In this document: piece after piece, positions 7,466 to 30,285 of the stretch | Layout of the letters: every line of letters starts with the position of its first letter | Numbering within the stretch: the stretch's first letter is position 1 | IMG/VR virus record: IMGVR_UViG_3300021364_000008 | Coordinates: 35,004-99,003 of that record | Strand: one strand, 5' to 3' | DNA length: 64,000 nt | From: a virus | The notes under the pieces: generated by a model | The model's input: the letters and a program-made list of their open reading frames with translations, nothing else | Told to the model about the DNA's origin: nothing | Databases searched by the model: none | Position numbers and translations under genes: made by a program

Positions 7466-7492
7466 TTTTATCTTAAAATCTAAATAAAATGC

Positions 7493-7531
7493 AAAGAGGT
7501 GCTTGACACCTCTTTCTTTTTGATCTACAAT
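7493..7531 (+). terminator. Rho-independent terminator fused to the sigma70 promoter of hli
   Basis: Stem aaagaggtg/cacctcttt plus T tract; TTGACA(7503)-17 bp-TACAAT(7526). Confidence 0.75.
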
Positions 7532-7554
7532 ACTCTTGTAAATCTTCATATATT

Positions 7555-7764
7555 ATGACTGTTACAACTGAAGACGGTGGACGCCAAAACATGTTTGCCG
7601 TTGAACCACAAATGTACATTACGGAGGAAGACATGGAAAATCATGTAACTGAAACTCATAACGAAAGGGCTGAAAAACTGAATGGAAGAGTTGCTATGGT
7701 GTCAATTATGTTGGCATTTATTTCCTACTTTACTACAGGAACACTTGCATTTGGTTTGTTTTGA
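7555..7764 (+). CDS. hli: High-light inducible protein
   Basis: AEKLNGRVAM chlorophyll-binding motif; MTVTTEDGGRQNMFA N-terminus typical of cyanophage hli. Confidence 0.92.
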   Translation: MTVTTEDGGRQNMFAVEPQMYITEEDMENHVTETHNERAEKLNGRVAMVSIMLAFISYFTTGTLAFGLF

Positions 7765-7794
7765 TATAGAATGAGTATTTAAAACTTCGAGCAT

Positions 7795-7802
7795 TATAAA
7801 TA
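7795..7802 (+). promoter_or_regulatory. T4-type late promoter for the lysozyme gene
   Basis: TATAAATA, lying within an inverted repeat. Confidence 0.65.
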
Positions 7803-7870
7803 ATAATATATTAATGCTCGGAGTTTTTTATGCTTCCAAAGTAGAGACAATTCTGGAAGATTTGTGAAAA

Positions 7871-8506
7871 ATGACTATTAAAATACTGGATGCTGTAAAA
7901 TATCATAAAGATTTACCACATCAAATAGATGCCTGGGAGTACCTACAAAAAAATATTAATGATGAAACGCTATATGAATTTGCAAGCATATACAGGAATC
8001 TAAAAGTAGAATCGCCAACCAATAATCCTAATGAAGTACCGTTGGTTGGCGTTAATTTAATTAAAGAGTTTGAGGGGTGTCATCTGGAGGCATATCCTGA
8101 CCCTCTTACAGGAGGACTCCCAATCACAATCGGTTGGGGGTCCACAAGAGACGAAAACGGAAAACCATTCAAGTTGGGTACAAAGATTTCTCAGCAAACT
8201 GCTGACGATCTTCTCATTTCACAAATAAAGAATGAGTTTCTTCCTCCATTGACTCAGATTCCTTATTGGAATCGAATGAATATGAATCAGAGAGGAGCAC
8301 TTCTCTCATTTGCATATAACTTGGGTGCAAGATTCTATGGTTCTTCTGGTTTTAATACAATCAGTAGAGTCCTGAAGAATAGACAGTGGAATAAAGTTCC
8401 TGATGCACTATATCTTTATCGTAATCCGGGAACAAATGTAGAAGCTGGATTGAAAAGGAGGAGAATTGCTGAAGGGAAACTTTTTCTGGAAGGACTTAAT
8501 AAATAA
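7871..8506 (+). CDS. GH24 lysozyme (endolysin)
   Basis: IKEFEG..LEAYPD..TIGWGST (E-D-T triad), ALLSFAYNLG and GLKRRR.AE motifs. Confidence 0.9.
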   Translation: MTIKILDAVKYHKDLPHQIDAWEYLQKNINDETLYEFASIYRNLKVESPTNNPNEVPLVGVNLIKEFEGCHLEAYPDPLTGGLPITIGWGSTRDENGKPFKLGTKISQQTADDLLISQIKNEFLPPLTQIPYWNRMNMNQRGALLSFAYNLGARFYGSSGFNTISRVLKNRQWNKVPDALYLYRNPGTNVEAGLKRRRIAEGKLFLEGLNK

Positions 8507-13358: not shown

Positions 13359-13385
13359 TAATAACCCCTAGTGTAAACGAAGACG

Positions 13386-14576
13386 GTGGCAATTAAAATT
13401 AAAAATTCTACTATTATTGATGATAGTAGAAATCTAGTTGATGTAGGAATATCAACTATTACTTCTTTAAGTATTGGAAGTACCGAAGTTATAAGTTCTT
13501 CAAGACAACTCAAGAATATTGATTCTCTTGATGCAACGACAACTGCAACTATTGAGAGTGCAATAGCGAATGCTCCAAATACATTTACTGACTTAAATGT
13601 AACTGGAATTTCAACTCTTAATGTTGTAAGTGCAAATTCACTGAATGTGGTTGGTGTCATAACTGCTGGTGGATTTGATGGTGGTCCACTCTCTGGTTCC
13701 AGTGGTTCTTTTACACAAATTGATGTAAGTGGTATTGGAACAATTGCGACTCTAGATACCAATAACGGAACAATTGATTTCTTATCGGGAACTAACATCA
13801 ATGCTTCTGGTATTGTAACTGCAAATACATTTAGTGGCAATTTAGAAAATACATTAACACTTAATACATCGGGTACTGGACTTTCTGGTTCTACTACATT
13901 TAATAATTCTGGTGCTGCTACATTCACTGTAACCTCTAATGCAACCAGTAATAATACTGGTGGAACAATAGTTGCTCGTGATGGCTCTGGTAATTTTAGT
14001 GCTGGTATTATTACTGCAACCAGATTTGTTTCTACACAAACCACAGGAACTGCACCATTTACAGTTTCTTCTACTACTAAAGTCACTAATTTAAATGCAG
14101 ATTTATTAGATGGTTATAATACTGCATCTACAAATACTGCGAGTACAGTTGTTATAAGAGATGGTTCAGGTAATTTTAGTGCTGGAACAATTACTGCAAG
14201 TCTTTCTGGTAATGTAGATGCAACAACAGTAGATACTGATGATTTAAATATTGGAACTCAATCAGTCTCTAATACAACAACGACAAACCTTTCTACATTA
14301 TCAGCAACAACGATTGAAAGTTTTGCGATTGCTACTTATCGTTCTGCAAGAGTTCAAGTACAAATCACACAAGGAACTGATTACCAGACAAGTGATGTAT
14401 TAATTATACACGATGGTTCTACTGCATCAGTTATTGAATATGCTTCTATTGCGACTGATGATTACTTAGGAACATTTACTGGAGCAGTTTCTGGTGGTAA
14501 TTGTTTATTACAGATAAATATGAGTAGTTCATCATCTGCAACTGTGAAAGTTTTGTCTCAACTCATAACAGTCTAA
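13386..14576 (+). CDS. Tail fibre-like protein
   Basis: GTG start; internal repeat (V/I)xRDGSGNFSAGxITA twice; TKVTNLNADLLDG motif. Confidence 0.7.
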   Translation: MAIKIKNSTIIDDSRNLVDVGISTITSLSIGSTEVISSSRQLKNIDSLDATTTATIESAIANAPNTFTDLNVTGISTLNVVSANSLNVVGVITAGGFDGGPLSGSSGSFTQIDVSGIGTIATLDTNNGTIDFLSGTNINASGIVTANTFSGNLENTLTLNTSGTGLSGSTTFNNSGAATFTVTSNATSNNTGGTIVARDGSGNFSAGIITATRFVSTQTTGTAPFTVSSTTKVTNLNADLLDGYNTASTNTASTVVIRDGSGNFSAGTITASLSGNVDATTVDTDDLNIGTQSVSNTTTTNLSTLSATTIESFAIATYRSARVQVQITQGTDYQTSDVLIIHDGSTASVIEYASIATDDYLGTFTGAVSGGNCLLQINMSSSSSATVKVLSQLITV

Positions 14577-14604
14577 ATAGTCTTATAAGGAGTAAGAAAA
14601 GAAG

Positions 14605-16080
14605 ATGGCGAAAAATCGCATTACATTTACTGATGATTTTGTCTTAAGAAATGAACAAGTTGGTATTGGAACGACAAATCCATTTGCAACTTTAACAGTT
14701 GTTGGTGATACTAATATTTCTGGTGTTGTAACTGCATCTTCATTTTCTGGTGATGCATTTAATGCTTATCCATTCTACTCTGGAATCACAAGTTCAGTTT
14801 TTGTATCTCCAACTGGTGTTCTCAATCCGGTTATAGAGTTTCCATCAACTGCAGATAAAAGATACATTATTCACTCAATTAATGTTGCAAATGTAGCAAG
14901 AGTTCAACCACAAGTTGCTGGTGCAACTGTTGATATTGATATGAATGCAGGTGCTGTTACATCACTTACGATTGATGGTGTTGGCGTAGGATATACTGAT
15001 GGAGATCTTGGTTCTCCAAGTAATCTTAATGTTTCTTTCGCAACAACTTCTTATGTTGGTGTTGGAACTACTGGTGATCCAGCATACTCTGGTATTACAA
15101 GTGCATTAGGTTACATTACATCAGTATCTGGTGGTGCTGTGACTGGTGTTGCAATTACTTTTGGTGGATTTGGTTATACTTCTGCTCCTGCCGTAACTTT
15201 TGACCCACCAGCAGCAGGAGGAACCACAGAAACAGGAACAGCAGTTCTTACTCTTGGAGAAGTCACTGCAGCAAACTTGAATGTTCCTGGTGAAGGTTAT
15301 ACTGAACCTCCAACGGTTTCTATTGCATCAACAGCAGGAACTGGAGCAGTCATCACAGCAGATGTAGATAGTGATGGAAAGGTTATAAGACTGAATCTAC
15401 TTGCACGAGGTTATGGTTATTCTACGAATAATTCTCTTGGAAATAATGAAGAAAACGAAGTTTATATTTCACAACCACCACTTGCTAAAACAGAAGTTGG
15501 TGTTGATGTAGAAATGGATCGTGTTCCTGTTGGTGGTGGAACTACTGTTGCATCATATCTTGCATTTGATGTTCCTATTCCTGTTGGTGGTGTCCTTGAA
15601 GTTCTCAAGCAACCAGCAGTAATGAATCCTGGTGATGTAATGAAAATTCGTGGTATTGATGCTGATGGTTCTGGTCTAAGTGATGCAATTGATGTATGTA
15701 TTTCTTATGAAGAAACTCACGACAATTATATTGGTTATGGAACTGCAACACCAGCAAATGTGGGTCTTGGAACCACTGTTGCAAATATTGGAATCATAAG
15801 TGCAACAACAAATCCAGTGATGGTACAATCCATAAGACTTACAAATACCGAATTCGTTGGTGATTATGATGTCTCAGTCAAAGTCATCACAGGTGCAGGA
15901 CAAACATTCTATCTTGCAAGGAATCTTATGATTCCATCATTCGCATCAGTAGAACTTTGTGATACACCAAAGAGAATTGAAGCAGGTTCTTATATATTGA
16001 TGGACGCAGAAACTGTTGGTATTGATGCGAATGAAGCAAGTACCATAGATATACAAGTATCAGGAAGACAGATTGTATGA
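14605..16080 (+). CDS. Virion structural/decoration protein
   Basis: VGIGTTNP motif; G(F/E)GYTxxPxV repeats; two related C-terminal beta domains. Confidence 0.6.
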   Translation: MAKNRITFTDDFVLRNEQVGIGTTNPFATLTVVGDTNISGVVTASSFSGDAFNAYPFYSGITSSVFVSPTGVLNPVIEFPSTADKRYIIHSINVANVARVQPQVAGATVDIDMNAGAVTSLTIDGVGVGYTDGDLGSPSNLNVSFATTSYVGVGTTGDPAYSGITSALGYITSVSGGAVTGVAITFGGFGYTSAPAVTFDPPAAGGTTETGTAVLTLGEVTAANLNVPGEGYTEPPTVSIASTAGTGAVITADVDSDGKVIRLNLLARGYGYSTNNSLGNNEENEVYISQPPLAKTEVGVDVEMDRVPVGGGTTVASYLAFDVPIPVGGVLEVLKQPAVMNPGDVMKIRGIDADGSGLSDAIDVCISYEETHDNYIGYGTATPANVGLGTTVANIGIISATTNPVMVQSIRLTNTEFVGDYDVSVKVITGAGQTFYLARNLMIPSFASVELCDTPKRIEAGSYILMDAETVGIDANEASTIDIQVSGRQIV

Positions 16081-16733
16081 GTATTTTTATAGCATTACCT
16101 TGTTATGGCGGAGTGGTTTGTGAGAAGACCACAATGAGTTTGTTTAATCTTGGAAAACTCTTTGTAAGAGAAGGAGTACCACACGGATTATTTACAGTTG
16201 CAAATTCTTCTTTGATTAGTCAAGGAAGAAGTAAGATTGCAAACTTCTTTCTAAATAATACAGACCACGAGTACTTGTTCTTCCTTGATAGTGATATTGG
16301 ATTTGATCCAACTTCAGTATTAAAACTTCTAAGTCATCAAAAGGATATTGTCGCAGCACCTTATCCTATGAAATCAATACCATTACGATACAATTATAAA
16401 CTTGCAGTTCCAGAAGAACGACAAGGTGATCTAGTTAAAATAGAACATAATGGTATGGGATTTGTAATGATTCATCGTAAAGTATTTTATGATATTGCTG
16501 CTGCTTATCCTGAACTGAAATATTATCCATCACTTGACGATAGTAATGTAAGACCAAGTGAACAAGAATATCATAACTCTTATCATTACTTTTTGGAACA
16601 TAAGAATGGACCAAGTTTTATGCCTGAGGATATTAGTTTCTTTTGGAGAGCAAGAAGTTTAGGTTATGAATGTTGGTTAGATAAAAGTGTACATCTCTCA
16701 CACACTGGATCTCACTTATTTGAGGAACGATAA
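16077..16733 (+). CDS. GT-A fold glycosyltransferase-like protein
   Basis: IALPCYGG, LFFLDSDIGF, GMGFVMIHR and EDISF motifs. Confidence 0.7.
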   Translation: MSIFIALPCYGGVVCEKTTMSLFNLGKLFVREGVPHGLFTVANSSLISQGRSKIANFFLNNTDHEYLFFLDSDIGFDPTSVLKLLSHQKDIVAAPYPMKSIPLRYNYKLAVPEERQGDLVKIEHNGMGFVMIHRKVFYDIAAAYPELKYYPSLDDSNVRPSEQEYHNSYHYFLEHKNGPSFMPEDISFFWRARSLGYECWLDKSVHLSHTGSHLFEER

Positions 16734-19612
16734 TGCCGCAGACTGGAGTAAGAACTAACATCTTTGGTATTGGTGAAGTTTATGAACTTCAAAGAGAAGG
16801 TCAGTGGGTAGAAAAGAATAGAGAATCTTATAGGGAGTATGGGTATTTTGGTGGATTGAGAAATGGTCTTACAACATATTCTTTTTCAACTAGAATTGAT
16901 TATTCTAACGATACATCAACAGCAAATACAAGAGGAAATTTTAATTTAAATAGAAATTATATTGCAGCAACAGGAAACTCTAATTTTGGATATTTTGGTG
17001 GTGGTGGTGCTATTTCTACTATAGAAAGAATAGATTATTCTAATGATTCTGCTTTAGCTAGTATTAGAGGTCCATTAACAATAAGTAGAATTGCTGGTTC
17101 TGCAGTGGGGAACTCTAATTTTGGTTGGTTTATTTGTGGGCAAGTATCAAATGTAGATAGAGTAGATTATGCAAATGACTTAGCAACGGCATCAATAAGA
17201 GGTAATGAATTAGCAGATTTTTCCAGATATTCTTCTTTTGGTAATTCTAATTATGGTTGGAATGGTGGTGGAAATAATGCTGTATTCAATAACCCCACAT
17301 CAATGATAAGAAGAATTGATTACTCTAATGATTTAATTGCGCCAACAATTCGTGGACCATTTAATGGTTTTAGAAGATTATTTGGAGCAACAGGAAATTC
17401 TAATTTTGGTTATGCTGGTGGTGATTTTGGTGCATCATCAAGAATTGAACGAGTTCAATATTCAAATGATTTGGTAACTGCAAGTATAAGAGGTCCATTA
17501 AGTTCTGGACGAGGATATTTAACAGCAACTGGAAACTCCAATTTTGGATATTTTAATGGAGGTACTAATGTACCATCACCATCAGTTATAACTTATTCAC
17601 TTACAGATCGCATAGATTATTCAAATGATACAGTAACTGCAAGTGTTAGAGGTTCATCTCCTGTACCTCAATCATATCATGCATCAACCTCCTCAGCATC
17701 ATTCGGTGGTGCTCCTGTTTCATATCTTGGAGCACCTTGGACTGATACAAGTCCTTTTGGGTATTTTGGTGGTGGAAACAATCCAGGAGTTCCTGCAAGT
17801 TATTCAACAATAGATCGTGTTGATTATACAAACGATACAAATACTGCAAGTGTTCGTGGTCCATTGACTGAATTAAAATATGGATTAGCAGCAACAGGAA
17901 ATTCTAATTTTGGATATTTTGGTGGTGGTCTAAATCCTTTAATTACATATCCATCTACAATAGATCGTTTAGATTATTCAAATGATTCTTCTAACTCAAG
18001 TTCAAGAGGATTTTTAACCTCTGGTAGAACCATATTAGCATCGACAGGAAATTCTAACTTTGGATACTTTGGTGGAGGTTCTCTTGGAACATTATCAACT
18101 GTAGACAGAATACAATATTCTAATGATACTGCAACTGCATCAACCAGAGGTCCATTAAGTATAGGAAGAAGACAGTTAAGTGCTACAGGAAATTCTAATT
18201 TTGGATATTTTGGCGGAGGAACTTTTCCCGACTTTTCAACAATAGATCGCATTGATTATTCAAATGATTTATTAACTGCAAGTGCGAGAAATAATCTTCC
18301 AGAAGTACAAAGAGCACTTGCTGCTACAGGAAACTCTAATTTTGGTTATTTTGGTGGAGGTTATACTTCGTTAGTAAGACGATTGGATTATTCAAATGAT
18401 ACTTTCCCAATACTTACTAGAGGTTCTATAGCATCAAGAGGTTTAATTTCTGCAACGGGGAATTCAAACTTTGGATACTTTGGTGGAGGTCAATCTGGTG
18501 CTGGACCATTATCAACAGTAGACCGCATAGATTACTCAAACGACACCCAAACAGCATCAGCAAGAGGTCCATTGAGTGTTGCAAGGCAATATTTAGCAGC
18601 AACCTCCTCACAAGCATTTGGAGGTGCTCCAAACACCACCACAGATCCATTACCTGTGTATATAAGAGATGCTACGAAGTTTGATGATTCTAATACACTT
18701 GATTTACCATTTAAGAGAGTATTGGGGTCTTATGGGTATTTTGGTGGTGGTAGTGTTCCTTCTTTATATTCAACAGTAAATCGCATAGACTATTCTAACG
18801 ATACAACAAATGCATCTGTTAGAGGTTCATTAAGTCAAACTAGATATTCTCACCAGGCAACAGGAAATTCTAACTTTGGTTATTTTGTGGGAGGAAGAGT
18901 TGTTGCAGAACCATCACCTATTGTTTCTTCAAATGATAGAATAAATTATTCAAATGACCTTACATCATCTGTAATAAGAGGACCACTAGCATCTACATCT
19001 TATTTTACAAATGCAATCAGTTCAAATTCTTTTGGATATTTTGATAGTTTTGGTAATATATCAAAATTTGATTATTCTAATGATAATGCTACATCAATAC
19101 AAAGGTTTGTTAGAGTTAGAAGTCAAAATAGATATGGATTGAGTGGTAATTTGAATTTTGCATATTATGCTGGAGGTGGTGCTGGTGGAGGTGGTGGTGC
19201 AGTATCATTAATAGACAGATTAAATTTCTCAAATGATAGTGGAAATTCTGTTTATAGAGGAAATCTTACTTTTAATAAAAGTGAAACATCAAGTGTTGGA
19301 AATGATAATTTTGGATATGTTGGTGGTGCAAGAAGTCCAAGTCCAACTACCATAACTGCTGTTGATAGAATTGATTATTCAAATGATACAGCAACAGCAA
19401 TTTTTAGATTTAATTTAGATAGATTTAGAAATGCCTCAACAGGAAATTCTAACTTTGGATATTTTGCTATGGGTGCTGTAACTGCTGGAAATAGTGTAAA
19501 TTCGCAGATATATCGTTTAGATTATTCAAATGATACTTCTGTGGTTGTGAGATCAAACACAACTTATTCTTCTTGGTTTGCAAGAGGAACAACCAACGCA
19601 AGATCCTCATAA
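16733..19612 (+). CDS. Triple six-bladed kelch-like beta-propeller protein A (18 repeats)
   Basis: 18 repeats of FGYFGGG-x-STVDRIDYSNDTATASVRGPL-x-AATGNSN in three blocks of six. Confidence 0.8.
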   Translation: MPQTGVRTNIFGIGEVYELQREGQWVEKNRESYREYGYFGGLRNGLTTYSFSTRIDYSNDTSTANTRGNFNLNRNYIAATGNSNFGYFGGGGAISTIERIDYSNDSALASIRGPLTISRIAGSAVGNSNFGWFICGQVSNVDRVDYANDLATASIRGNELADFSRYSSFGNSNYGWNGGGNNAVFNNPTSMIRRIDYSNDLIAPTIRGPFNGFRRLFGATGNSNFGYAGGDFGASSRIERVQYSNDLVTASIRGPLSSGRGYLTATGNSNFGYFNGGTNVPSPSVITYSLTDRIDYSNDTVTASVRGSSPVPQSYHASTSSASFGGAPVSYLGAPWTDTSPFGYFGGGNNPGVPASYSTIDRVDYTNDTNTASVRGPLTELKYGLAATGNSNFGYFGGGLNPLITYPSTIDRLDYSNDSSNSSSRGFLTSGRTILASTGNSNFGYFGGGSLGTLSTVDRIQYSNDTATASTRGPLSIGRRQLSATGNSNFGYFGGGTFPDFSTIDRIDYSNDLLTASARNNLPEVQRALAATGNSNFGYFGGGYTSLVRRLDYSNDTFPILTRGSIASRGLISATGNSNFGYFGGGQSGAGPLSTVDRIDYSNDTQTASARGPLSVARQYLAATSSQAFGGAPNTTTDPLPVYIRDATKFDDSNTLDLPFKRVLGSYGYFGGGSVPSLYSTVNRIDYSNDTTNASVRGSLSQTRYSHQATGNSNFGYFVGGRVVAEPSPIVSSNDRINYSNDLTSSVIRGPLASTSYFTNAISSNSFGYFDSFGNISKFDYSNDNATSIQRFVRVRSQNRYGLSGNLNFAYYAGGGAGGGGGAVSLIDRLNFSNDSGNSVYRGNLTFNKSETSSVGNDNFGYVGGARSPSPTTITAVDRIDYSNDTATAIFRFNLDRFRNASTGNSNFGYFAMGAVTAGNSVNSQIYRLDYSNDTSVVVRSNTTYSSWFARGTTNARSS

Positions 19613-19639
19613 ATACTCACAACTACATTATCATACACA

Positions 19640-20719
19640 ATGACTATATCAGGTGCAACTGAAACCTCATACGAATATCTTTACGAACACTTTCAACCAT
19701 CACAAGATATTCATATTTCTCATCTTCCACAAGAACTTAAGACCTCAACAAAACCAATTAAGATTCTGTGGGCACATCACGCATACGATCAACAGGTTTA
19801 TCAAAACTTCTCACACGAACAAGTTACTCATATCGTAACACCATCAAACTGGGCGAAACAAACACTATCTCATTTTCATAAAATACCAGAGAATAAGATC
19901 TCAGTCATTCCAAATGGTGTAGATACTCAATATACTTATTCAAACCAAAAACAAAAACAACTGATATATACCTCAATACCTTATAAGGCACTACCAGTCT
20001 TAGCAGCAGTGATTCCTTTGGTACATTCAATTCATCCTGATGCAAAGTTTAAAATCTTTTCATCTATGAGTCTTTATGGTCCACAGAATGATCCTTTTAT
20101 TGAACTTTACGATCACCTGAAGACTCTACCAAATGTAGAATACTCAAGGGCAATTGATCGTCAACAACTGATTCAACATTACCAAGAATCTGCATTCTTT
20201 ATCAGTCCTTGTATCTGGGAAGAGACTTTTGGTGTTGCTATGTGTGAAGCAATGAGATGTGGTGCATATCCTATCATCACAGACATTGGAGCACTGGAAG
20301 AAGTTGCAGGACCCAATCTTGCAACAGTAGTTCCTATTGAAGGTCAAAGAACTACACAAGGTTATGAAGTCACAGAACGATTTGTGAAGCAGTTTGCAGA
20401 AGCAACTTGTGTAGCATTAGATTACTTTGATAAAGACAGAAAGACTTATGATGAGGTCTCTAAGTCTTGTAGTGATTGGGTTACAAAGCAATATGATTGG
20501 AAGACTATTGCAGGACTATGGAAGAATCTTACAAAGTCATTACAGGGGCATACAGACACCTCTAGTGAGGTGACTACACCGAACGGAGCGACTGTAAGGA
20601 GCGGTGGTGTTGGATTTGCAAATAAGATCGTAGAAAGAAAAGGTGAGACTTATGTAGAAGATAAGGTAGTAGAAAGTTCGGTTGGGGGTTACTTCAACTT
20701 TGATAAATACAACAGATGA
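19640..20719 (+). CDS. Glycosyltransferase family 4 (GT-B)
   Basis: VIPNGVD and EETFGVAMCEAMRCG (ExF..ExxxxG) motifs. Confidence 0.85.
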   Translation: MTISGATETSYEYLYEHFQPSQDIHISHLPQELKTSTKPIKILWAHHAYDQQVYQNFSHEQVTHIVTPSNWAKQTLSHFHKIPENKISVIPNGVDTQYTYSNQKQKQLIYTSIPYKALPVLAAVIPLVHSIHPDAKFKIFSSMSLYGPQNDPFIELYDHLKTLPNVEYSRAIDRQQLIQHYQESAFFISPCIWEETFGVAMCEAMRCGAYPIITDIGALEEVAGPNLATVVPIEGQRTTQGYEVTERFVKQFAEATCVALDYFDKDRKTYDEVSKSCSDWVTKQYDWKTIAGLWKNLTKSLQGHTDTSSEVTTPNGATVRSGGVGFANKIVERKGETYVEDKVVESSVGGYFNFDKYNR

Positions 20720-21651
20720 ATAAACACATAGGAATTTGGAGTTTTATGTCTATTTTACCTGAAAACAGTCTTGGTCTTCGTTCTATTGAAGAATTTTCTC
20801 AAGATAAAGATAAAGCAACAGAATACTTGAAGTCAGCATTTGATAATGTCTATAAGTACCACAAACAAGATTGTGAACTCGCTCAGGGTCGTACAAACTT
20901 TCAGTTAGAGAAGTTTGCTCTTCTTGAGACTTATACACCAGAAACTGCTTACGAAAGTGTTCTCAAGTCTAGAAAACAAATGGGAGAGGGTTTGCTCACA
21001 CTCCTGTTAGATCTCGCTGGGGAAGTAAGATCTTTTGAATATCGTTGGAAAGATAAGGATAAAAATGAACCTATTTTCTGGGAAGAAGCAGCACCCGCTG
21101 GTGGTTCTGGTAAAAAGTTGCTTTGGTTTGATCTTGATGAAATGAGATTGGTTCATAGATTAAAGTCAGCAGAACTTGAGGTTCGTGATCGTCTTTATCA
21201 AATGGAGCACTTAGAAAAAATGCTTCTTAAATTAAGAGAACAACTAGGTGGGGACTTGAGTAGGGAAAGATTCTTGGAAGCTGAACACAAATATTGGGAG
21301 ATTCGCTTCGCAGAGCAATCGGCGGATGAAATTTTGAGTCGTGAAACGGGAATTTCAATCGGCAATATTCATAGTATGAGAAGAGCATCTGCACCTTCAC
21401 TTGTTGATGATAGAAATCAATTGAAAGAAGGTTACTTACCAATTACTAAGATGCTTGAGAGTCCACAAGGAAGAATGGAATTTCTTGGAGACCTTCAACG
21501 CAAAATTGCTGAAGGTTATGAAAATGTAATGGATATTGATCTTGGAACTGGTAGATTTATTCCTGCAGCAGAAAGAAACAAACTTCGTCAACAAAAAGAA
21601 CAAGGACAAATTTCTGGTTCTCCAGAAAACACTGAGATTGTTGAGGAATAA
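20716..21651 (+). CDS. Hypothetical helical protein (alternative start 20746)
   Basis: Long charged ORF, no recognised motif. Confidence 0.6.
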   Translation: MNKHIGIWSFMSILPENSLGLRSIEEFSQDKDKATEYLKSAFDNVYKYHKQDCELAQGRTNFQLEKFALLETYTPETAYESVLKSRKQMGEGLLTLLLDLAGEVRSFEYRWKDKDKNEPIFWEEAAPAGGSGKKLLWFDLDEMRLVHRLKSAELEVRDRLYQMEHLEKMLLKLREQLGGDLSRERFLEAEHKYWEIRFAEQSADEILSRETGISIGNIHSMRRASAPSLVDDRNQLKEGYLPITKMLESPQGRMEFLGDLQRKIAEGYENVMDIDLGTGRFIPAAERNKLRQQKEQGQISGSPENTEIVEE

Positions 21652-21684
21652 ATAATATCGTTCGTGAACCGACAACCAGAACAT

Positions 21685-21713
21685 AAGGACGGGATTTACT
21701 CTTGTCCTTTTTT
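21685..21713 (+). terminator. Rho-independent terminator
   Basis: aaggacggga/tcttgtcctt stem (with G-U pairs) plus T tract. Confidence 0.6.
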
Positions 21714-21745
21714 AATATCTAAATACACCAGAATATAATGATGAA

Positions 21746-22234
21746 ATGAAACATAAGATCCAAATTATAGACAACTTCCTTGACGAACCACTGACCTACA
21801 AGAACTCCAAAGACCCCAACGCAACACAAGAAATCTCAAATAAGATCGCTCATATCCTCCAAGCAAACATAAAACTCTCCTCATCCTCAAACACACCAAA
21901 TCAAATCTTTGCTGATTACTCTTGTGATTTTATTGCGATGCTTTATTTGGACTTTCCAACAGAATGTGTGAATAAAAAAGCAGTATCATTTTGGATGCAT
22001 AAAGAAACACAAGATGAAGAACTACCAAATGAAACTAAATTGAAATGGTTAGGACTTCAAAGTGTTGAAGAAATTGAGAAGTGTTATGATGTAAGTAAAG
22101 TTGAGGACTGGGAGAGGTATATGAGTTATTATATCAAATATAATCGCCTGATATTATTTGATGCGAAGATGTTTCATTCCTATGGTGATGAGAGTGATTG
22201 TAGGAAATTTAATATAGAGATAAATAATTTATAA
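21746..22234 (+). CDS. 2OG-Fe(II) oxygenase-like protein (DUF6445-like), possibly catalytically degenerate
   Basis: IIDNFLDEP N-terminus and YNRLILFDAKMFHS C-terminus; the HxD position reads FAD. Confidence 0.6.
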   Translation: MKHKIQIIDNFLDEPLTYKNSKDPNATQEISNKIAHILQANIKLSSSSNTPNQIFADYSCDFIAMLYLDFPTECVNKKAVSFWMHKETQDEELPNETKLKWLGLQSVEEIEKCYDVSKVEDWERYMSYYIKYNRLILFDAKMFHSYGDESDCRKFNIEINNL

Positions 22235-22252
22235 TAGAGTTTCTGTGTCTAA

Positions 22253-25159
22253 ATGTCTGGAATATTTGGTCTTTCTGCTTATAACGATCAAAACTTAGCA
22301 GGTCTTATACCAGATAAGACCAGAGAATCCTTTAGGGAGTATGGGTATTTTGGAGGTGGAAATGCTCCAGGAAATGTATCAACAGTAGACCGAATAGATT
22401 ACTCTAACGACACAGCAACAGCATCAGTTAGAGGTCCATTAGATATTATTAAAAGAAATGTGGAAGCAACAGGAAACTCTAACTTTGGTTATTTTGGTGG
22501 AAGTTTACCACTAAGATCAACAGTAGACCGCATAGATTACTCTAACGACACAGCAACAGCATCAGTTAGAGGTCCATTAAGTCAAGAAAAATATTCTTCT
22601 TCTGCATCTGGAAATTCAAATTTCGGTTGGTTTACTGGAGGACATACAAATGACAATATAATAGATATTAATTTTTCAATTTCAACAATAGATCGTATTG
22701 ATTATTCAAATGATTTATCTACTGCTTCTATAAGAGGAAATTTAAATCAAAATAGAACTAATCATAGTATTGCTGGAAATTCAAATTATGGATGGATTGC
22801 TGGAGGAAATCTTGCAGTAAATGATTCTCCATTTTTTACTTCTGTTGAAAGATTGGATTATTCAAATGATGTTTCATTAACATCATTTAGATCCACATCA
22901 AATGATATATCAGGTCAAGGTAATAGTGCGACAGGAAATAATAATTTTGGATATTATCATAGAGCAAATTTTCCTGCAGGAACTAATAGAACAGATTTGC
23001 AGCGTATTGATTATTCTAATGATTTAATTAGTCCAACATTGAGAGGCAATTTAACTTTACTTATTACTGGTAGGGCAGCATCTGGAAACTCTAACTTTGG
23101 TTATTTTAGTGGTGGATCATTAGTTCCAGCAGGTTATGAGCCTAACTCTTCGGTTGAAAGAATAGATTATTCTAACGACACCACAATAGCATCAGTTAGA
23201 GGTCCATTATCTTCTGCAAGGTCTTCATTAGCAGCAACCTCCTCACACAGTTTCGGTGGATCTCCAATCTCACAATACGGAGTGTTTCCAAAACCTTTTG
23301 GGTATTTTGGAAATAATGCAAATTTTTCAAGATTTGATTTCTCAAATGATACATCAGCATCCGTAAGTAGAACATCAATTTCTGGAGTTGTACTTGTAGC
23401 AAAAGCAACAGGAAATTCAAATTATGCCTGGATTGGTGGAGGATTATTTTCAGTAAGTTCCAAAGTATATCGTTTTGATTATTCAAATGATAATGCTGGT
23501 GGAGTACAAAGAGGACCATTAAGTGCTGCAAGAGGATCTTTTGCAGCAACTGGAAATTATAACTTTGGATATTTTAGTGGTGGAATAGATCCTGGAGTCC
23601 CACCAAAGTATTCAATAGTAGACCGCATTGATTACTCAAATGATAATGTAACTGCTTTAAGAAGAGGTTCCCTGAGTGCAGTAAATTATAACCATACTGG
23701 AGTTTCAAATTTAAGTTATGCTTACTTTATTGGTGGAGGTGATGGACCAACAACAAAAACTTGGGTAGAAAGAATCAATTATTCTAATGATAATGCCTCA
23801 ACATCTTATAGATCACCATTACAAAATTCAAGACGACTTCTTGCATCTTCAGGGAATTCTAATTTTGCATATGTTTCTGGAGGAGATGTTGGTGGAGTAG
23901 TAAATTCTATTGTAGAACGAATTGATTATGCAAGTGATACTTCTGCAACAAGTATTCGTGGACCATTAAGTTTAGCAAGAGCTGGATTTGCAGGAACAGG
24001 AAATTCTAATTTTGGTTATTTTGGTGGTGGTGGTGCTCCTGGACTAGTATCAACAGTAGACCGCATAGATTATTCCAATGATACTGCAACTGCAACTGCA
24101 AGAACTACAAATACTTTTAGTGATGTAGTAGATTATGGTATTTCTCCACTCACACCAAGCAGTGCATTCTCACCAGACCAACTAATTAGAGGAACATCAA
24201 ACACTGACTTCCAACCAACTTCAACATTCTTTGATATTCAGTCAATGAGAAGAATTGAAGATACTACAAATGAAAGTGTGAAGAAGAGAGTGTTGGGGTC
24301 TTATGGGTATTTTGGTGGTGGTTTAAGTCCAGATGTATCAACAGTAGAAAGAATTGATTATTCCAATGATAATTCTTCTGGTTTAATTAGAGGACCACTA
24401 TCTGGAATAAAAAGACAACCAACAGGAGTTGGAAATAATAATTTTGGTTATATAGTTGCTGGTGGAATTTCTTCACCATCATTCGTATCATTAATAGAAA
24501 GAATTGACTATTCAAATGATTCTGTAAATACATCTATAAGAGGAAATATTGATAGATCTGTGGTTTCTGCATTTTCGGTTGGAAATGAAAAATATGGGTA
24601 TATTGCTGGTGGATTTTTATACAATTCAAGAGTCCAAAGAATAGATTATTCTAATGATAATTCAACACCGACTATTAAAGGATCTTTAAATAAATTGACT
24701 GCTGGTGCTGGAGCAGCAGGAAATAACAATTTTGGGTATTTTGGTGGTGGTGGAGATGCGTCTATTTATACTTCTATAGTAGAAAGAATTAATTATTCTA
24801 ATGATTCAATTAAACCTTCAATTAGAGGTCCATTAAGTTTAGCAAGAAGTAGATTGGGAGCAACAGGAAATAACAATTTTGGGTATTTTGGTGGAGGTAG
24901 AAGTTCTGTAGATACTTCAATTATAGAAAGAATAGATTATTCCAATGATACTGTATTAGCATCTGTAAGATCAAATTTAGTTTTACCATCATATGCAGTA
25001 TCTTCTACAGGAAATTCAAACTTTGGATACTTTATTGGGTTTCCATTTTTTAGTACACATAGATTAGATTACAATAATGATACAAATAATACTATTCTAA
25101 GAGGCGCTTTATCAGCTGTAAGATATAGAGCAGCAACAACCAACGCAAGAAACTCCTAA
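22253..25159 (+). CDS. Triple six-bladed kelch-like beta-propeller protein B (18 repeats)
   Basis: Same 3 x 6 repeat architecture; ends TTNARNS. Confidence 0.8.
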   Translation: MSGIFGLSAYNDQNLAGLIPDKTRESFREYGYFGGGNAPGNVSTVDRIDYSNDTATASVRGPLDIIKRNVEATGNSNFGYFGGSLPLRSTVDRIDYSNDTATASVRGPLSQEKYSSSASGNSNFGWFTGGHTNDNIIDINFSISTIDRIDYSNDLSTASIRGNLNQNRTNHSIAGNSNYGWIAGGNLAVNDSPFFTSVERLDYSNDVSLTSFRSTSNDISGQGNSATGNNNFGYYHRANFPAGTNRTDLQRIDYSNDLISPTLRGNLTLLITGRAASGNSNFGYFSGGSLVPAGYEPNSSVERIDYSNDTTIASVRGPLSSARSSLAATSSHSFGGSPISQYGVFPKPFGYFGNNANFSRFDFSNDTSASVSRTSISGVVLVAKATGNSNYAWIGGGLFSVSSKVYRFDYSNDNAGGVQRGPLSAARGSFAATGNYNFGYFSGGIDPGVPPKYSIVDRIDYSNDNVTALRRGSLSAVNYNHTGVSNLSYAYFIGGGDGPTTKTWVERINYSNDNASTSYRSPLQNSRRLLASSGNSNFAYVSGGDVGGVVNSIVERIDYASDTSATSIRGPLSLARAGFAGTGNSNFGYFGGGGAPGLVSTVDRIDYSNDTATATARTTNTFSDVVDYGISPLTPSSAFSPDQLIRGTSNTDFQPTSTFFDIQSMRRIEDTTNESVKKRVLGSYGYFGGGLSPDVSTVERIDYSNDNSSGLIRGPLSGIKRQPTGVGNNNFGYIVAGGISSPSFVSLIERIDYSNDSVNTSIRGNIDRSVVSAFSVGNEKYGYIAGGFLYNSRVQRIDYSNDNSTPTIKGSLNKLTAGAGAAGNNNFGYFGGGGDASIYTSIVERINYSNDSIKPSIRGPLSLARSRLGATGNNNFGYFGGGRSSVDTSIIERIDYSNDTVLASVRSNLVLPSYAVSSTGNSNFGYFIGFPFFSTHRLDYNNDTNNTILRGALSAVRYRAATTNARNS

Positions 25160-25186
25160 TAAATACCTCAAACAACCCACTACATA

Positions 25187-25810
25187 ATGAGACGCTCTAT
25201 CATAATACTTGACGATTTCCACGAGAATCCACAAGAAGTCCGTAACTACGCAATATCTGCAGAGTACTCCAAAGAAGAAACTGCAACTTTTCCAGGATCA
25301 AACTCAACAACAGGTTTCCAAGAAGACCTACTAAAATCAAAGATAGAATCAATTCTTCAAAGACCCATAAAACCCTCAAATACTTTTGGATACTTTAGAT
25401 ATTCTTGGGAAACATCCAATCAAGAAAATCCAAAACTCCAAAAAGTTCATGTTGATAATGGATGGGAGTTTGGTGGAGTTTGTTACTTATCAACACCAGA
25501 ACAACTCAAAGATAATCCAGATTCGGGAACATTATTCACAAGACATAAGATCTTAAAGACAGACGCAACACCAAGAACCAAAGAAGAAGCAGAACTCTTT
25601 GGTTATACTCATTATGATGAGTTAAGACAATCAATCATTTATGGTGATGGATTAGACTTGGATAAGTGGGAGGTGTATGCTCGTTGTTTGCCTAAGTTCA
25701 ATCGTTTAGTCTTATTCCGTGCTTGGATGTATCATAGTCATTTTGTAAATTTTGGTCCAAAAGATCCAGCACAAAGTCGTCTAGTTCAATTATTCTTTTT
25801 TAATACTTGA
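25187..25810 (+). CDS. 2OG-Fe(II) oxygenase-like protein (DUF6445-like)
   Basis: ILDDFHENP, HVD, FNRLVLF...HS and RLVQLFF motifs. Confidence 0.75.
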   Translation: MRRSIIILDDFHENPQEVRNYAISAEYSKEETATFPGSNSTTGFQEDLLKSKIESILQRPIKPSNTFGYFRYSWETSNQENPKLQKVHVDNGWEFGGVCYLSTPEQLKDNPDSGTLFTRHKILKTDATPRTKEEAELFGYTHYDELRQSIIYGDGLDLDKWEVYARCLPKFNRLVLFRAWMYHSHFVNFGPKDPAQSRLVQLFFFNT

Positions 25811-26658
25811 TTATGCACTATTCATACTATTTTATGTCTGGGTTGCCCAGGAGTGGTTCTACACTCTTAAGATCCATATTAAATCAAAATGAGTCCATAT
25901 ACAGTGGACCAATCTCACCATCAGTAGAACTCCTCTACTACACAGACAAATACTTTCAATCCAGTGAGATGTTACTTGCATCACCAAATCCTCAAGGTTG
26001 TTATGATGTTCTATCCAATATGATGGATCACTTCTATCATAATATAATGGAGAAAGAAGGTAAATCAAAAATCATAGAATTCAATAGAGCAATTCCAAAT
26101 AACATTGAACGATTTAGAACTTATATTAAAGATGATGTAAGAATTGTATGTCCTGTAAGAAGTATACCAGAAATCCTTGCAAGTTTTATTAGTTTGATTC
26201 ACAAAAATAGTGATAAGGTTTCATTTGTGGATCAGTATTTGATTGATAAAGGTATTGAAGTGAATGATGATACTCGTTGTGATTACTTGATGAGTGATTA
26301 TGGTATTGTCGGTCAGGCATTATTTGCGATGAGTCGTCCATATTTGAGAAACGAACAGAGTCTATTGAAGATCGTTGAGTATGATGACCTTGTAGAGAAT
26401 ACTGATAAAGTAATGGAAGAGATCTATGACTTCTGGGGATTAGAGAAGTATTCGCATAGCTATGAGAACTTAGAGAATACTTATCCAGAGAATGATATTT
26501 TTCAGTATAATTTAGATGGGATGCATACGATTGGTAGAACAATTAAGAAGACTTGTAAGAAACCAGAAGAAGTCTTAAGTAAGGAGATCATTGAAAAGTA
26601 TAGTGGTATGGAATTTTGGAGAACTGATTGTAGTAATAAGTATTATCTTACGATCTAA
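25807..26658 (+). CDS. Sulfotransferase family protein
   Basis: PAPS-binding GLPRSGSTLL; VRS..EILAS; YDDLV. Confidence 0.85.
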   Translation: MIMHYSYYFMSGLPRSGSTLLRSILNQNESIYSGPISPSVELLYYTDKYFQSSEMLLASPNPQGCYDVLSNMMDHFYHNIMEKEGKSKIIEFNRAIPNNIERFRTYIKDDVRIVCPVRSIPEILASFISLIHKNSDKVSFVDQYLIDKGIEVNDDTRCDYLMSDYGIVGQALFAMSRPYLRNEQSLLKIVEYDDLVENTDKVMEEIYDFWGLEKYSHSYENLENTYPENDIFQYNLDGMHTIGRTIKKTCKKPEEVLSKEIIEKYSGMEFWRTDCSNKYYLTI

Positions 26659-26686
26659 TAAATAATCAATAAAGTGTCTAAAACTG

Positions 26687-29608
26687 ATGGCGGACAATAA
26701 AAATATTCAAAAAGTGTTTGGTCTTAGTGATTATCGCAAACTTCAATTAACATCTAAAATACCTGAGAGAGGTAGAGAATCCTTCAGGGAGTATGGATAC
26801 TATTCAATGGGTGCTCCTTTTGGGCAACATGGTTTTACTAATGTCTATCGGTTAGATTTTACAAATGATACTAATATATTAAATATTCATAATTATTTAA
26901 ATATTAGACGCAGTTTAGCAGCAGCAGCAGGAAACTCTAACTCTGGATATTTTGGTGGTGGTTCTTTTGGACAATCAATATCATCAATAGAACGAATAGA
27001 CTATGCAAATGATGTTGCAACTCCATCATTTAGAGGTCCATTAAGTTTAGCAAGATCTAGATTAGCAGCAACAGGAAACTCCAATTTTGGTTATTTTGCT
27101 GGGGGAATGATTTCAGAATCATCTAATAATACATCAAGAACAGATAGAATTAATTATTCAAATGATTTAGCAACTGCAGCAATAAGAGGTCCATTATCAT
27201 TCGCCAGGCAATCGGTGGGTGCAGCATTTTCTAATAGTAAATATGGTTATTTTACTGGGGGGTCATTAGTACAATATTATGCTCCAGTATTTTCTACAAT
27301 TGAAAGAATAGATTATTCCAATGATATTTTTTTACCATCAATTAGGGGTCCTTTAAGTTCTGCAAGAAGATACGCAGCAGGAATTGGAAATTTAAATTAT
27401 GGATATTCTGGTGGAGGAAGAAATACTCCAGCCAATGCTATATCTTTAGTAGATCGCATTGATTACTCAAATGATACGGCACAATCAAGTCCAAGAGGTA
27501 ATTTAGTCCGGGCAAGAACTAATCTTGGTGCAACAGGAAATTCTAATTTTGCTTGGTTTATGGGTGGATTTTCCTCAATGATTGATAGAGTAGATTATGC
27601 AAATGATACAATAACTTCAACAAGTAGAGGAAGATTAGATAGTAGTTTATATGGCGGACAAGCAACCTCCTCACACAGTTTCGGTGGATCTCCAAACTCT
27701 TCATTTGCCTCTAACTTTACATTTCCTACTGTTCCTAATGCTGGGTATTTTGGTGGTGGTACTATTCCAGGACCAGCAGTAACAGCAAGTATTGATAAAG
27801 TAGATTATGCAAATGATACAGCAACTGCAAGTGTTCGTAGTGCTTTGAGTGTTGCAAGAAACTCAATTGGTTCTATTGGTAATAATTCTTTTGGTTATTT
27901 TGCTGGTGGATTTATTCCAAGTCCAGCAACATTTTCAACAATAGATCGCATAGAATATTCAAGTGATACACAAAACACAATAACAAGAGGTCCATTAAGT
28001 TCTTCTAAAGGACAAATATCTGGTACAGGAAACTCAAACTTTGGTTATTTTGGTGGTGGTACTCCTGGACCAAGATCAACAGTAGACCGCATAGACTACT
28101 CTAACGACTCAGCAACAGTAAGTGTTAGAGGTCCATTAAGTTTAGCAAAAAGATATTTTTCAACATTAAGTAATTTTAATTTTGGTTATAATTGCGGTGG
28201 TTATGTTCCTGCCGGAAATGCATCAAATGTAGACCGCATAGATTACTCCAATGATACAGCAACAGCATTAGCAAGAGGACCACTACAATCAGTATCATCA
28301 CATACAAGCGGAGGTGCAGGAAATATTAATTTTGGTTATGCATTTAATGGAATTTTTGGTGGAGATAGATCAATTATAAATCGCATAGATTATTCTAACG
28401 ATACTCAAACAGCATCAGTAAGAGGTCCTTTAAGTACATATTCTGCATTTAGAGCGATGACTGGAAGTTCCAGTTTTGGATATGTTGGTGGTGGTGATGC
28501 AATATCAACAATAGACCGTATCAACTTCTCAAACGATACTGCAATCGCACAAGTAAGAGGACCACTACCAGTTGCTAAAAGTAGTGGAGCAGCAACCTCA
28601 CCACTTGCTTATGGTGGTGCTCCAATTTATTTCACCAATCCACTTCCACAAGTCTTCCAGGACCAGATTGAGTTTGATGATTCTAATACACTTGATTTAC
28701 CATTTAAGAGAGTGTTGGGGTCTTATGGGTATTTTGGTGGAGGTTCTTCTATTCTAAGTAGAATAGATTTTTCAAATGATTTAGCAACTTCATCAAGTAG
28801 ATCTGTTGTTGTGATTACTAGTGATGAAGCATATGCAGGAACTGGGAATAATAATTTTGGTTATTTTGGTGGTGGGTATTTTTCTGCATTGGGAACTTCT
28901 ACAGTAGGAAGAGTTGATTATTCTAATGATAATGCTATTTGTTCTATAAGAGGACCACTTACAACATCACTACGATTACAATCTGCATCAGGTACAAATA
29001 ATTTTGGATATTTTGCTGGCGGAATTGCTATTGGTGTGACTAGATCAACAATAACAAGAATAGATTATTCAAATGATTTAGCAACATCTCAAAATAGATC
29101 TAATATGAAATTTAGCAAAACTGTAATGGGATTTACAAGTAATTCTAATTTTGGTTATTTAGCAGCGGGATTTCAATTTCCAAGCACTGCGTATTCTAAT
29201 GTAGAAAGAATAAATTATTCAAATGATAATATTTCACCAACTACTAGAGGTAATTTAAGTTCAAATAAAAATAATTCCTTTTATTATAGTTTTGGTTCAA
29301 CAGGAAACTCCAACTTTGGTTATTTTGGTGCTGGAACAAATTCTGGACCATTATCAACAGTAGACCGCATAGATTACTCTAACGATACAGCAACAGCATC
29401 AGTAAGAGGACCATTAAGTTTAGCAAGAAGAGAATTAGCAGCAACAGGAAATTCTAACTTTGGTTATTTTGGTGGTGGTGCTCCTGGACCAAGATCAAGA
29501 GTAGACCGCATAGATTACTCTAACGATACAGCAACAGCATCAGTAAGAGGTCCATTTTCTTTTGCAAGAGTATCATATTGCGCCACAACCAACGCAAGAA
29601 ACTCCTAA
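26687..29608 (+). CDS. Triple six-bladed kelch-like beta-propeller protein C (18 repeats)
   Basis: Same 3 x 6 repeat architecture; ends TTNARNS. Confidence 0.8.
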   Translation: MADNKNIQKVFGLSDYRKLQLTSKIPERGRESFREYGYYSMGAPFGQHGFTNVYRLDFTNDTNILNIHNYLNIRRSLAAAAGNSNSGYFGGGSFGQSISSIERIDYANDVATPSFRGPLSLARSRLAATGNSNFGYFAGGMISESSNNTSRTDRINYSNDLATAAIRGPLSFARQSVGAAFSNSKYGYFTGGSLVQYYAPVFSTIERIDYSNDIFLPSIRGPLSSARRYAAGIGNLNYGYSGGGRNTPANAISLVDRIDYSNDTAQSSPRGNLVRARTNLGATGNSNFAWFMGGFSSMIDRVDYANDTITSTSRGRLDSSLYGGQATSSHSFGGSPNSSFASNFTFPTVPNAGYFGGGTIPGPAVTASIDKVDYANDTATASVRSALSVARNSIGSIGNNSFGYFAGGFIPSPATFSTIDRIEYSSDTQNTITRGPLSSSKGQISGTGNSNFGYFGGGTPGPRSTVDRIDYSNDSATVSVRGPLSLAKRYFSTLSNFNFGYNCGGYVPAGNASNVDRIDYSNDTATALARGPLQSVSSHTSGGAGNINFGYAFNGIFGGDRSIINRIDYSNDTQTASVRGPLSTYSAFRAMTGSSSFGYVGGGDAISTIDRINFSNDTAIAQVRGPLPVAKSSGAATSPLAYGGAPIYFTNPLPQVFQDQIEFDDSNTLDLPFKRVLGSYGYFGGGSSILSRIDFSNDLATSSSRSVVVITSDEAYAGTGNNNFGYFGGGYFSALGTSTVGRVDYSNDNAICSIRGPLTTSLRLQSASGTNNFGYFAGGIAIGVTRSTITRIDYSNDLATSQNRSNMKFSKTVMGFTSNSNFGYLAAGFQFPSTAYSNVERINYSNDNISPTTRGNLSSNKNNSFYYSFGSTGNSNFGYFGAGTNSGPLSTVDRIDYSNDTATASVRGPLSLARRELAATGNSNFGYFGGGAPGPRSRVDRIDYSNDTATASVRGPFSFARVSYCATTNARNS

Positions 29609-29634
29609 TAAATACTAAAAACAACTTCAATACT

Positions 29635-30285
29635 ATGAATTTATTATCAAATATCTTGATTGAACCACAAGTACTCACACCAGAAGCACTTCAAGAACTA
29701 CAAGATCACGCAAGAAAATCATCCACAACTGACTTATCAGTTTTTGATCCAGACAAAACAAATGAAACTGGAGAGACTTCTTGGATTGTAGATAAGGATA
29801 TAAGAGATACACAGATTATTGAGTTTGGTCCTTTATTTCCAAAGATTGAAGAACTCTTTAAGAATATTGTACATCATATTATAAATCCTTTTTATGGTAT
29901 TGAAGTATGGGATAGTGAAGTACCACAATTTCTTAAGTATAATGTTGGAGGCCATTACTCTCCTCATATTGATGGTAGATCTATTTGGGTTGCTCCTAAT
30001 GGTGATAAGATTTGGAGACTTAGTACGGATCGTCATCTAAGTTGCGTTCTTTATTTGAACGACGATTTTGAAGGTGGCGAGTTTGCTTTTCCAGACCTTC
30101 ATATTCAAGTGAAACCAAAACCAGGACTTTTAGTTTGTTTTCCATCAGATCAAAATTATTTGCATAGCGTACTTCCAGTAACTCAAGGAACACGGTACTC
30201 CATTGTAACTTGGGCGAGAGTCAAAGGGCAAAAAACTAAAGAACAAGAAGACCAAGAACTTTTAGAAAAGTATGGAGTCAACTAA
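29635..30285 (+). CDS. 2OG-Fe(II) oxygenase, prolyl 4-hydroxylase-like
   Basis: YNVGGHYSPHID, LYLNDDFEGGE and HSVLPVTQGTRYSIVTW motifs. Confidence 0.88.
   Translation: MNLLSNILIEPQVLTPEALQELQDHARKSSTTDLSVFDPDKTNETGETSWIVDKDIRDTQIIEFGPLFPKIEELFKNIVHHIINPFYGIEVWDSEVPQFLKYNVGGHYSPHIDGRSIWVAPNGDKIWRLSTDRHLSCVLYLNDDFEGGEFAFPDLHIQVKPKPGLLVCFPSDQNYLHSVLPVTQGTRYSIVTWARVKGQKTKEQEDQELLEKYGVN

Follow-up and report, generated by a model that had tools for sequence, protein, structure and literature searches.

Two described systems come closest to the genes considered here. In T-even phages, the tail-fibre adhesins gp37 and gp38 undergo modular shuffling in which conserved motifs are the sites of recombination (Tetart et al. 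1996, 1998, as cited in PMC3157838), and gp38 combines glycine-rich motifs with hypervariable segments (PMC3157838). In Podospora anserina, the HNWD/NWD WD40-repeat genes, among them het-d and het-e, show high internal conservation by concerted evolution together with hypervariable codons (PMC12222747). The genes A, B and C described here lie in a stretch of 64,000 nucleotides (the window), corresponding to bases 35004-99003 of the 99-kb IMG/VR contig IMGVR_UViG_3300021364_000008. This contig comprises about 47% of the estimated genome of its source, an uncultured, marine, cyanophage-like T4-like myovirus.

Gene A (16733..19612, an open reading frame of 959 aa), gene B (22253..25159, 968 aa) and gene C (26687..29608, 973 aa) are all encoded on the + strand, as are the tracts, the linker-2 blocks, the anchor gene and the genes with Pfam matches given below. 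They are colinear paralogues with a protein identity of 44-49% and a DNA identity of 58-60%. All three have the same architecture: each comprises 18 repeats of about 47 aa in a 6+6+6 arrangement, that is, three six-bladed propellers, with linker 1 after unit 6 and linker 2 within unit 12. Blades are designated by gene and unit, e.g., C17 for unit 17 of gene C, and the three genes form a cassette with the enzyme genes interleaved between them.

The three genes most probably evolve by ordinary phage homologous recombination acting at two scales, on short patches and on whole modules. Blade frameworks and linkers would offer the homology. Patches of about 35-70 nt would be copied between blades and genes by gene conversion, leaving islands of identical DNA, synonymous sites included, in genes that are otherwise 58-60% identical. 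Four blocks conserved in their nucleotide sequence, namely the N-terminal block, the two linkers and the C-terminus, would be the sites of crossovers that exchange or replace whole propellers (about 870 nt), both between co-infecting relatives and between paralogous slots. Whole genes may be lost from or gained by the cassette in the same way. The mechanism would thus be an ordinary one, and the pace, as far as it is visible, is evolutionary.

Identical tracts in the three genes and their origin

In total, five patches of 35-70 nt, identical or nearly so and with abrupt edges, are shared within and between the genes. Four had been reported in an initial annotation made from the sequence, and base-by-base comparison confirmed all of them. 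The first is a 37-nt tract covering the end of A11 and the start of A12 (18501..18537), which is identical at 37/37 positions to the end of C16 and the start of C17 (29343..29379); these two sites are not positional counterparts. The framework segments of the blades B1 (22379..22441) and B2 (22517..22579) agree at 62/63 positions. A linker-2 tract of gene A (18678..18747) agrees at 69/70 positions with gene C (28671..28740), and a linker-1 tract of gene B (23233..23267) at 35/35 with gene C (27661..27695). The fifth patch, absent from the initial annotation, is the longest exact match, with 51 nt shared by C17 (29359..29409) and C18 (29500..29550). How sharp the edges can be is illustrated by B1 and B2, which differ at 1/63 nt within the segment and at 41/75 nt directly after it, including synonymous changes in the conserved GNSNFGYFGG segment.

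Two null models were used to evaluate this sharing. When the proteins were kept fixed and synonymous codons were shuffled across A, B and C (300 shuffles), the 84 shared 30-mer pairs observed compared with a mean of 2.3 (maximum 17), and the 25 shared 40-mers with 0.01. In a stricter model, codon shuffling was restricted to blades that share a residue at the repeat column concerned (200 shuffles). Here, 2 in-register runs of at least 40 nt were observed versus 0.01 expected (0/200 shuffles), 6 runs of at least 30 nt versus 1.5 (3/200), and 80 runs of at least 20 nt versus 46 (0/200). Codon choice was also informative. The Arg codon CGC, noted earlier as uncommon here and yet shared, makes up 4% of the Arg codons in the other genes of the contig but 14/52 of those at repeat position 5. 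The rare codons GAC, CGC, TAC and AAC co-occur, and all four are present in five blades, compared with 0.14 expected if they were independent (permutation p<5e-5). This linkage, together with the excess over the shuffles, argues that the sharing consists of linked stretches of common descent and not of site-by-site codon choice. The matches exceed what protein conservation and codon usage produce.

The genes themselves appear to be old copies. Blade cores within the window have a mean nucleotide identity of 57%, the best pair reaching 82%, and the framework segment is 59-63% identical among the blades. Positional counterparts are slightly more alike than other blades (0.599 vs 0.567), and the best match is the positional counterpart for 10/54 blades versus 3 expected (p<0.0002). 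This weak but significant signal is probably the trace of an old whole-gene triplication. It is among the points that do not support the reading of the initial annotation. The nearest relative found, the metagenome locus L042, is only 81-91% identical in most flanking genes, and for this reason fine dating of the tracts in the window is not possible.

The two longest blade tracts link adjacent blades, 138-141 nt apart, as would be expected if single blades had recently been duplicated in tandem (B1 to B2, C17 to C18) and their loops had then diverged rapidly under diversifying selection. Such an origin is very unlikely. The 6+6+6 arrangement is kept by all genes in four phages, so that every blade gained would have to be offset by one lost; in the blades concerned, synonymous sites of the second half of the framework have diverged; and the inter-gene and linker tracts would be left unexplained.

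The direction of copying was studied in syntenic orthologues. A total of 54 related loci, all of them metagenome contigs, were fetched with a conserved 218-aa gene (16077..16733) as anchor. The IMG/VR loci L014 and L002, which carry the cassette in the same gene order as the window, served as references for polarity; L042 has the same order as far as the fetched locus reaches, which stops before gene C. Linkers of A, B and C type are recognisable across phages. Linker 1 of gene C in the window begins with the B-type codons CAC AGT and is again of C type after the tract, and a GGA in linker 1 is common to B and C of the window and absent from all six genes of L014 and L002. These states indicate that linker 1 was copied from B to C in the lineage of the window. 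Linker 2 of gene C is of C type upstream, followed by an A-type stretch that lacks the two-codon insert of the C-type linkers of L014 and L002, which indicates copying from A to C in the same lineage. In L014, the orthologous blades 1 and 2 of gene B are unlike each other, and the same holds for the orthologues of C17 and C18. The identity of both pairs in the window is thus derived, and B1/B2 and C17/C18 appear to have been homogenised in its lineage. The last three blades of gene C (29270-29605) have their closest counterparts, at 72-78%, in the final blades of gene B of L014 and not in its gene C, which suggests an older exchange of this C-terminal part between B and C.

Homogenisation of the blades is strong in some phages and weak in the window. 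A 57-nt framework of B1, B2, C17 and C18 recurs with at most 5 mismatches in 12 blades of the locus L015 and 3 blades of L010. Among the blades of L015, the framework segment reaches 91-94% identity and identical residues share their codon in 86-96% of cases; the loops differ. Framework identities of 80-100% between repeats are reached in L015, L007 and L010, and not in the window. A consensus framework DNA that occurs across the family and is strongly homogenised in some relatives supports the idea of a consensus blade, which had been advanced in the initial annotation. The propeller genes at L015:4027-5919, 7412-8398 and 2-1075 have blade frameworks that are almost fully homogenised, with variation only at residues 17-18, in the loop of residues 22-29 and in the inter-blade tail. 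Loci of the L015 kind may be mis-assembled from short reads.

Whole-propeller exchange and the conserved joints

Exchange at the scale of modules is seen among the relatives. The enzyme genes flanking the propeller genes of L014 and L002 are 84-98% identical, and their propellers are either 94-100% or 50-70% identical, with the switch points in the N-terminal block, linker 1 and linker 2. The first propeller of gene C in L014 matches the first propeller of gene B in L002 (96% over 892 nt), and the second propeller of B (97.7%) and the third of A (94%) are also shared. The locus L003 agrees with L014 at 99.6% as far as the final base of a 30-nt block in linker 2 and is unrelated beyond it; with a single propeller gene in place of the three of L014, it is 10.6 kb shorter. 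Between L042 and L039, an identity of 96% likewise extends to this block.

The comparison of L042 with the window gives a similar picture. Most enzyme genes are 81-91% identical, one gene (20716-21651) 64%, the N-termini and linkers 81-99%, and the propeller bodies about 60%. The bodies have thus diverged as far as paralogues, synonymous sites included, which argues that they were replaced from a diverse pool and did not diverge in place.

Variation in gene and propeller number was also observed in these loci. L003:9992-12844 and L014:4501-17181 (also L047 and L065) represent near-identical strains with one versus three propeller genes, the left junction lying at the linker-2 block, and the three-gene arrangement of the L014 type includes six interleaved genes, five with enzyme-family matches and one with its function unassigned. 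Downstream of the 218-aa anchor, L049, L059, L071 and L073 have propeller genes with two, four or about five propellers, and the number of genes differs.

All these sequences are metagenome assemblies, and short reads are known to give faulty assemblies of propeller repeats that are highly homogenised (PMC12222747). Assembly error through jumps from one repeat or strain to another is nevertheless an extremely improbable source of the patterns described. The tracts of the window, at 35-70 nt, are below read length and have unique sequence on both sides, and its blades are only about 57% alike. The arrangements of L014 and L002 were each found again at 100% in a second, independent contig (L045 and L048), which speaks against chimeras. 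Identity between swapped propellers is 94-98%, short of the 100% expected of a chimera between co-assembled strains.

The 30-nt block of linker 2, which encodes KRVLGSYGYF, is present in all three genes with 0-1 mismatch (gene A, 18713..18742; gene B, 24284..24313; gene C, 28706..28735), the copies of B and C being identical. Across nine genes from three phages, the N-terminal block, linkers 1 and 2 and the C-terminus show no variation at synonymous sites. These joint blocks use codons that are rare here (GGG, AAG, TTC, ACC and AAC), of which GGG and AAG occur in the 30-nt block. Both breakpoints described above, that between L003 and L014 and that between L042 and L039, fall exactly at the end of this block. 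The B-type linker 2 (about 24190-24310 in the window, about 11870-11990 in L014, about 17560-17700 in L042, and also in L002) is the most conserved stretch of the cassette, at 92-98% DNA identity in four phages, compared with just 70-91% for their enzyme genes. It is conceivable, although rather unlikely, that the joint blocks are more than conserved protein motifs and are selected as recombination joints, and that the locus is a purpose-built system of cassette exchange. The propellers would then be interchangeable, with a pool shared across co-infecting phages and paralogous slots, and a phage nuclease might stimulate the exchange. Such a locus would be the phage counterpart of the cassette systems of antigenic variation.

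Several points weigh against recombination at two scales as the explanation. Under the column-wise shuffling, only the two longest in-register blade tracts are clearly beyond chance, runs of at least 30 nt standing at just 3/200. Recent sharing of a whole blade or propeller among A, B and C was sought in the window and none was found. The proposal of the initial annotation that gene conversion or recombination swaps loops, blades and propellers is therefore upheld for the short tracts, which are best read as non-reciprocal exchange between paralogues and could be given a direction, and for propeller swaps in the relatives. It is not supported for recent sharing of whole blades or propellers in the window, nor is its 'ongoing' supported in the sense of activity within a population. 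Since the relatives are all metagenome contigs, a small chance of chimeric assembly at the conserved blocks remains. Some of the sharing in the window may also be retained consensus, persisting without conversion, and not fresh copying; in blade 12 of gene C, the GC-rich codons are conserved between the orthologues of three phages.

In its full form, retention is the main rival explanation. The tracts would be ancestral consensus-blade DNA, richer in GC and kept by selection on the nucleotide sequence itself or on the codons of structurally critical residues, the other blades would have decayed to an AT-rich state, and no copying would have occurred. Besides the codons kept in the C-type blade 12, the presence of the consensus 57-mer in distant relatives is in line with it, as are the position-specific use of CGN (repeat position 5) and GAC (position 4) and the synonymous invariance of the joint blocks in nine genes. 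It is nonetheless unlikely, because the orthologous blades of L014 are without the identity seen in the window, and the linkers of gene C in the window bear the states of another paralogue type, including an indel state and a window-specific synonymous state. In addition, the rare codons are strongly linked instead of independent, and the edges of the tracts are abrupt, with synonymous divergence resuming within conserved residues.

A constant framework with variable loops is also the design expected of a dedicated diversity generator. A known case is the diversity-generating retroelement (DGR) of Bordetella phage BPP-1, in which the gene of the phage surface protein Mtd combines a constant scaffold with variable binding residues. 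A DGR, with its reverse transcriptase and template repeat, or a site-specific recombinase could act on A, B and C, and its enzyme could sit in the missing part of the genome, the contig being about 47% of the whole. The likelihood of this is minimal. In the 99-kb contig, no match at E<=1 was found to reverse transcriptase (RVT_1, PF00078), to serine recombinases of the resolvase family (PF00239) or to tyrosine recombinases of the phage-integrase family (PF00589), whereas the controls matched. Among homogenised blades, all four bases are affected by substitution, roughly according to composition, and no adenine bias is seen. The listed repeats are all direct and in frame, in a search that covered direct repeats only, and no silent template copy was found. 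With neither a reverse transcriptase in the 99-kb contig nor adenine-biased mutation found, the locus is not a DGR and differs from that of BPP-1 in all three hallmarks, the enzyme, the template repeat and the adenine-specific changes.

The absence of a reverse transcriptase agrees with the initial annotation and extends to the contig beyond the window. Its companion statement, that shuffling proceeds without a recombinase, has to be given up, as the same contig encodes a UvsX-like recombinase (phrog_97, E 4e-71) and gp32 (phrog_224, E 1e-127). T4-type phages recombine at high frequency during replication. UvsX-dependent recombination may thus be the agent of both the patches and the module swaps, and selection for new binding surfaces on the loop face would keep the swapped variants. 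The UvsX-like gene itself (C1:5367-6284 of the contig, upstream of the window) aligns with no more than the N-terminal part of the profile and continues into a tail unrelated to it.

Fold, family and genomic surroundings

Genes A and B match phrog_19111 (E 3.5e-114 and 8e-103, respectively), a family whose function is unassigned in PHROG. The last propeller of gene C (28715-29605) was modelled with AlphaFold2 from a 46-row alignment. The model has a predicted local distance difference test score (pLDDT) of 81.3, a predicted template modelling score (pTM) of 0.86 and 24 strands; for the whole protein with a 9-row alignment, the pLDDT was 35 and no usable model was obtained. The top Foldseek matches of the propeller are the Kelch domains of Keap1 and KLHL12 (E 1e-14). 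According to the model, the modules of A, B and C are Kelch-type six-bladed beta-propellers, with six blades of four antiparallel strands arranged in a ring. They resemble the BTB-Kelch adaptors Keap1 and KLHL12 (PDB 7xm5, 6v7o and 2flu) in having six blades, each with four strands, about 47-50 residues, a diglycine and an aromatic motif, and the template modelling (TM) scores are 0.78-0.83. They differ from them in a sequence identity of 15-18%, in the lack of a Pfam Kelch match, in having three tandem propellers and in belonging to a family found only in viruses.

A Pfam search of A, B and C returned no family at E<=0.01, Kelch profiles included, and a sequence search of the PDB no match at E<=1. 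The profile PF24681 was found on 22% of the members of one neighbouring ESM Atlas cluster only. The family is restricted to viruses in the ESM Atlas, with one to about six propellers per protein, and T4-like phage contigs from marine and freshwater habitats commonly encode its multi-propeller proteins. No description of it was found in the literature on cyanophages, which yielded no more than a brief mention of a Kelch-repeat protein in P-HM2.

The 218-aa gene used as anchor (phrog_1574) is the first of the cassette in all relatives. A family 1 glycosyltransferase (19640..20719; PF00534, E 5.6e-12) lies between A and B. Between B and C are located a DUF6445 gene (25187-25810; PF20043, E 5e-11) and a sulfotransferase (25807-26658; PF13469, E 2e-11), and C is followed by a 2OG-Fe(II) oxygenase (29578..30285; PF13640, E 4e-18). 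According to Pfam, two DUF6445 genes in total are interleaved in the cassette. The gene at 20716-21651, of unassigned function and located between the glycosyltransferase and a short DUF6445 gene, shows just 60% (aa) and 64% (nt) identity with the L042 counterpart, compared with 81-91% (nt) for its neighbours; it is a second fast-changing or replaced gene of the cassette. Iyer et al. proposed that such sets of phage enzymes hydroxylate, and then sulfate, co-encoded structural proteins (PMC2938197).

Directly upstream of the cassette (11433-16080), three genes match tail-fibre, baseplate-wedge and virion structural protein families, which places the cassette in the tail-fibre region. From these tail-fibre and baseplate neighbours, we infer that the A, B and C proteins are virion-surface binders. 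The window also encodes gp32, the baseplate hub, the tail tube cap and tail-fibre genes, and the part of the contig upstream of it a split family-B DNA polymerase, the UvsX-like recombinase, a DnaB-like helicase and NrdA/B. The GC content is 34% contig-wide and 29-38% across 2-kb windows. A nucleotide search of GenBank phages with the 14.5-kb region gave no match, and a protein search recovered only Synechococcus phage S-SKS1 and two single-cell marine viruses, at an identity of 32% or less. S-SKS1 was considered as a comparison genome and dropped as too distant.

Known systems and significance

The exchange of adhesin segments in T-even phages is the closest phage analogue of this locus. In both cases, the phage is of T4 type with general recombination, variable specificity segments are separated by conserved motifs, and the locus lies among tail-fibre genes. 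In the present locus, breakpoints between related phages fall at conserved motifs, and the contig encodes a UvsX-like recombinase and gp32. Unlike gp37 and gp38, the A, B and C proteins are Kelch-type propellers and not fibrous, and the unit of exchange is a whole six-bladed propeller or a patch of 35-70 nt. A further difference is that they are encoded by three paralogous genes with modification enzymes interleaved. A putative role in host range has their tail-fibre and baseplate neighbours as its context.

For the behaviour of the repeats, the closest analogue is the concerted evolution of the Podospora HNWD genes. Both systems have beta-propeller repeats, framework DNA homogenised within and between paralogues by recombination, and variability at few positions, and relatives such as L015 reach 91-94% framework identity. 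In contrast to the 80-100% identity of HNWD repeats, the blades of the window are about 57% identical and their number is fixed at six per propeller. The genes also belong to a phage and not a fungus, the propellers are of Kelch and not WD40 type, and the exchange of whole propellers at the linkers has no HNWD counterpart.

Modular shuffling at conserved motifs and concerted evolution of propeller repeats are both known kinds of change. Here, the propeller genes sit in a tail-fibre region beside hydroxylase, sulfotransferase and glycosyltransferase genes. As the case also shows, the pattern of a constant framework with variable loops in phage DNA can stem from ordinary recombination, and no dedicated diversity generator is needed. 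If the A, B and C proteins bind host surfaces, a propeller exchange confined to defined joints would account for the quite different binding sets of phages that are otherwise near-identical, and the same joints would provide clean module borders for engineering or for following changes in host range.

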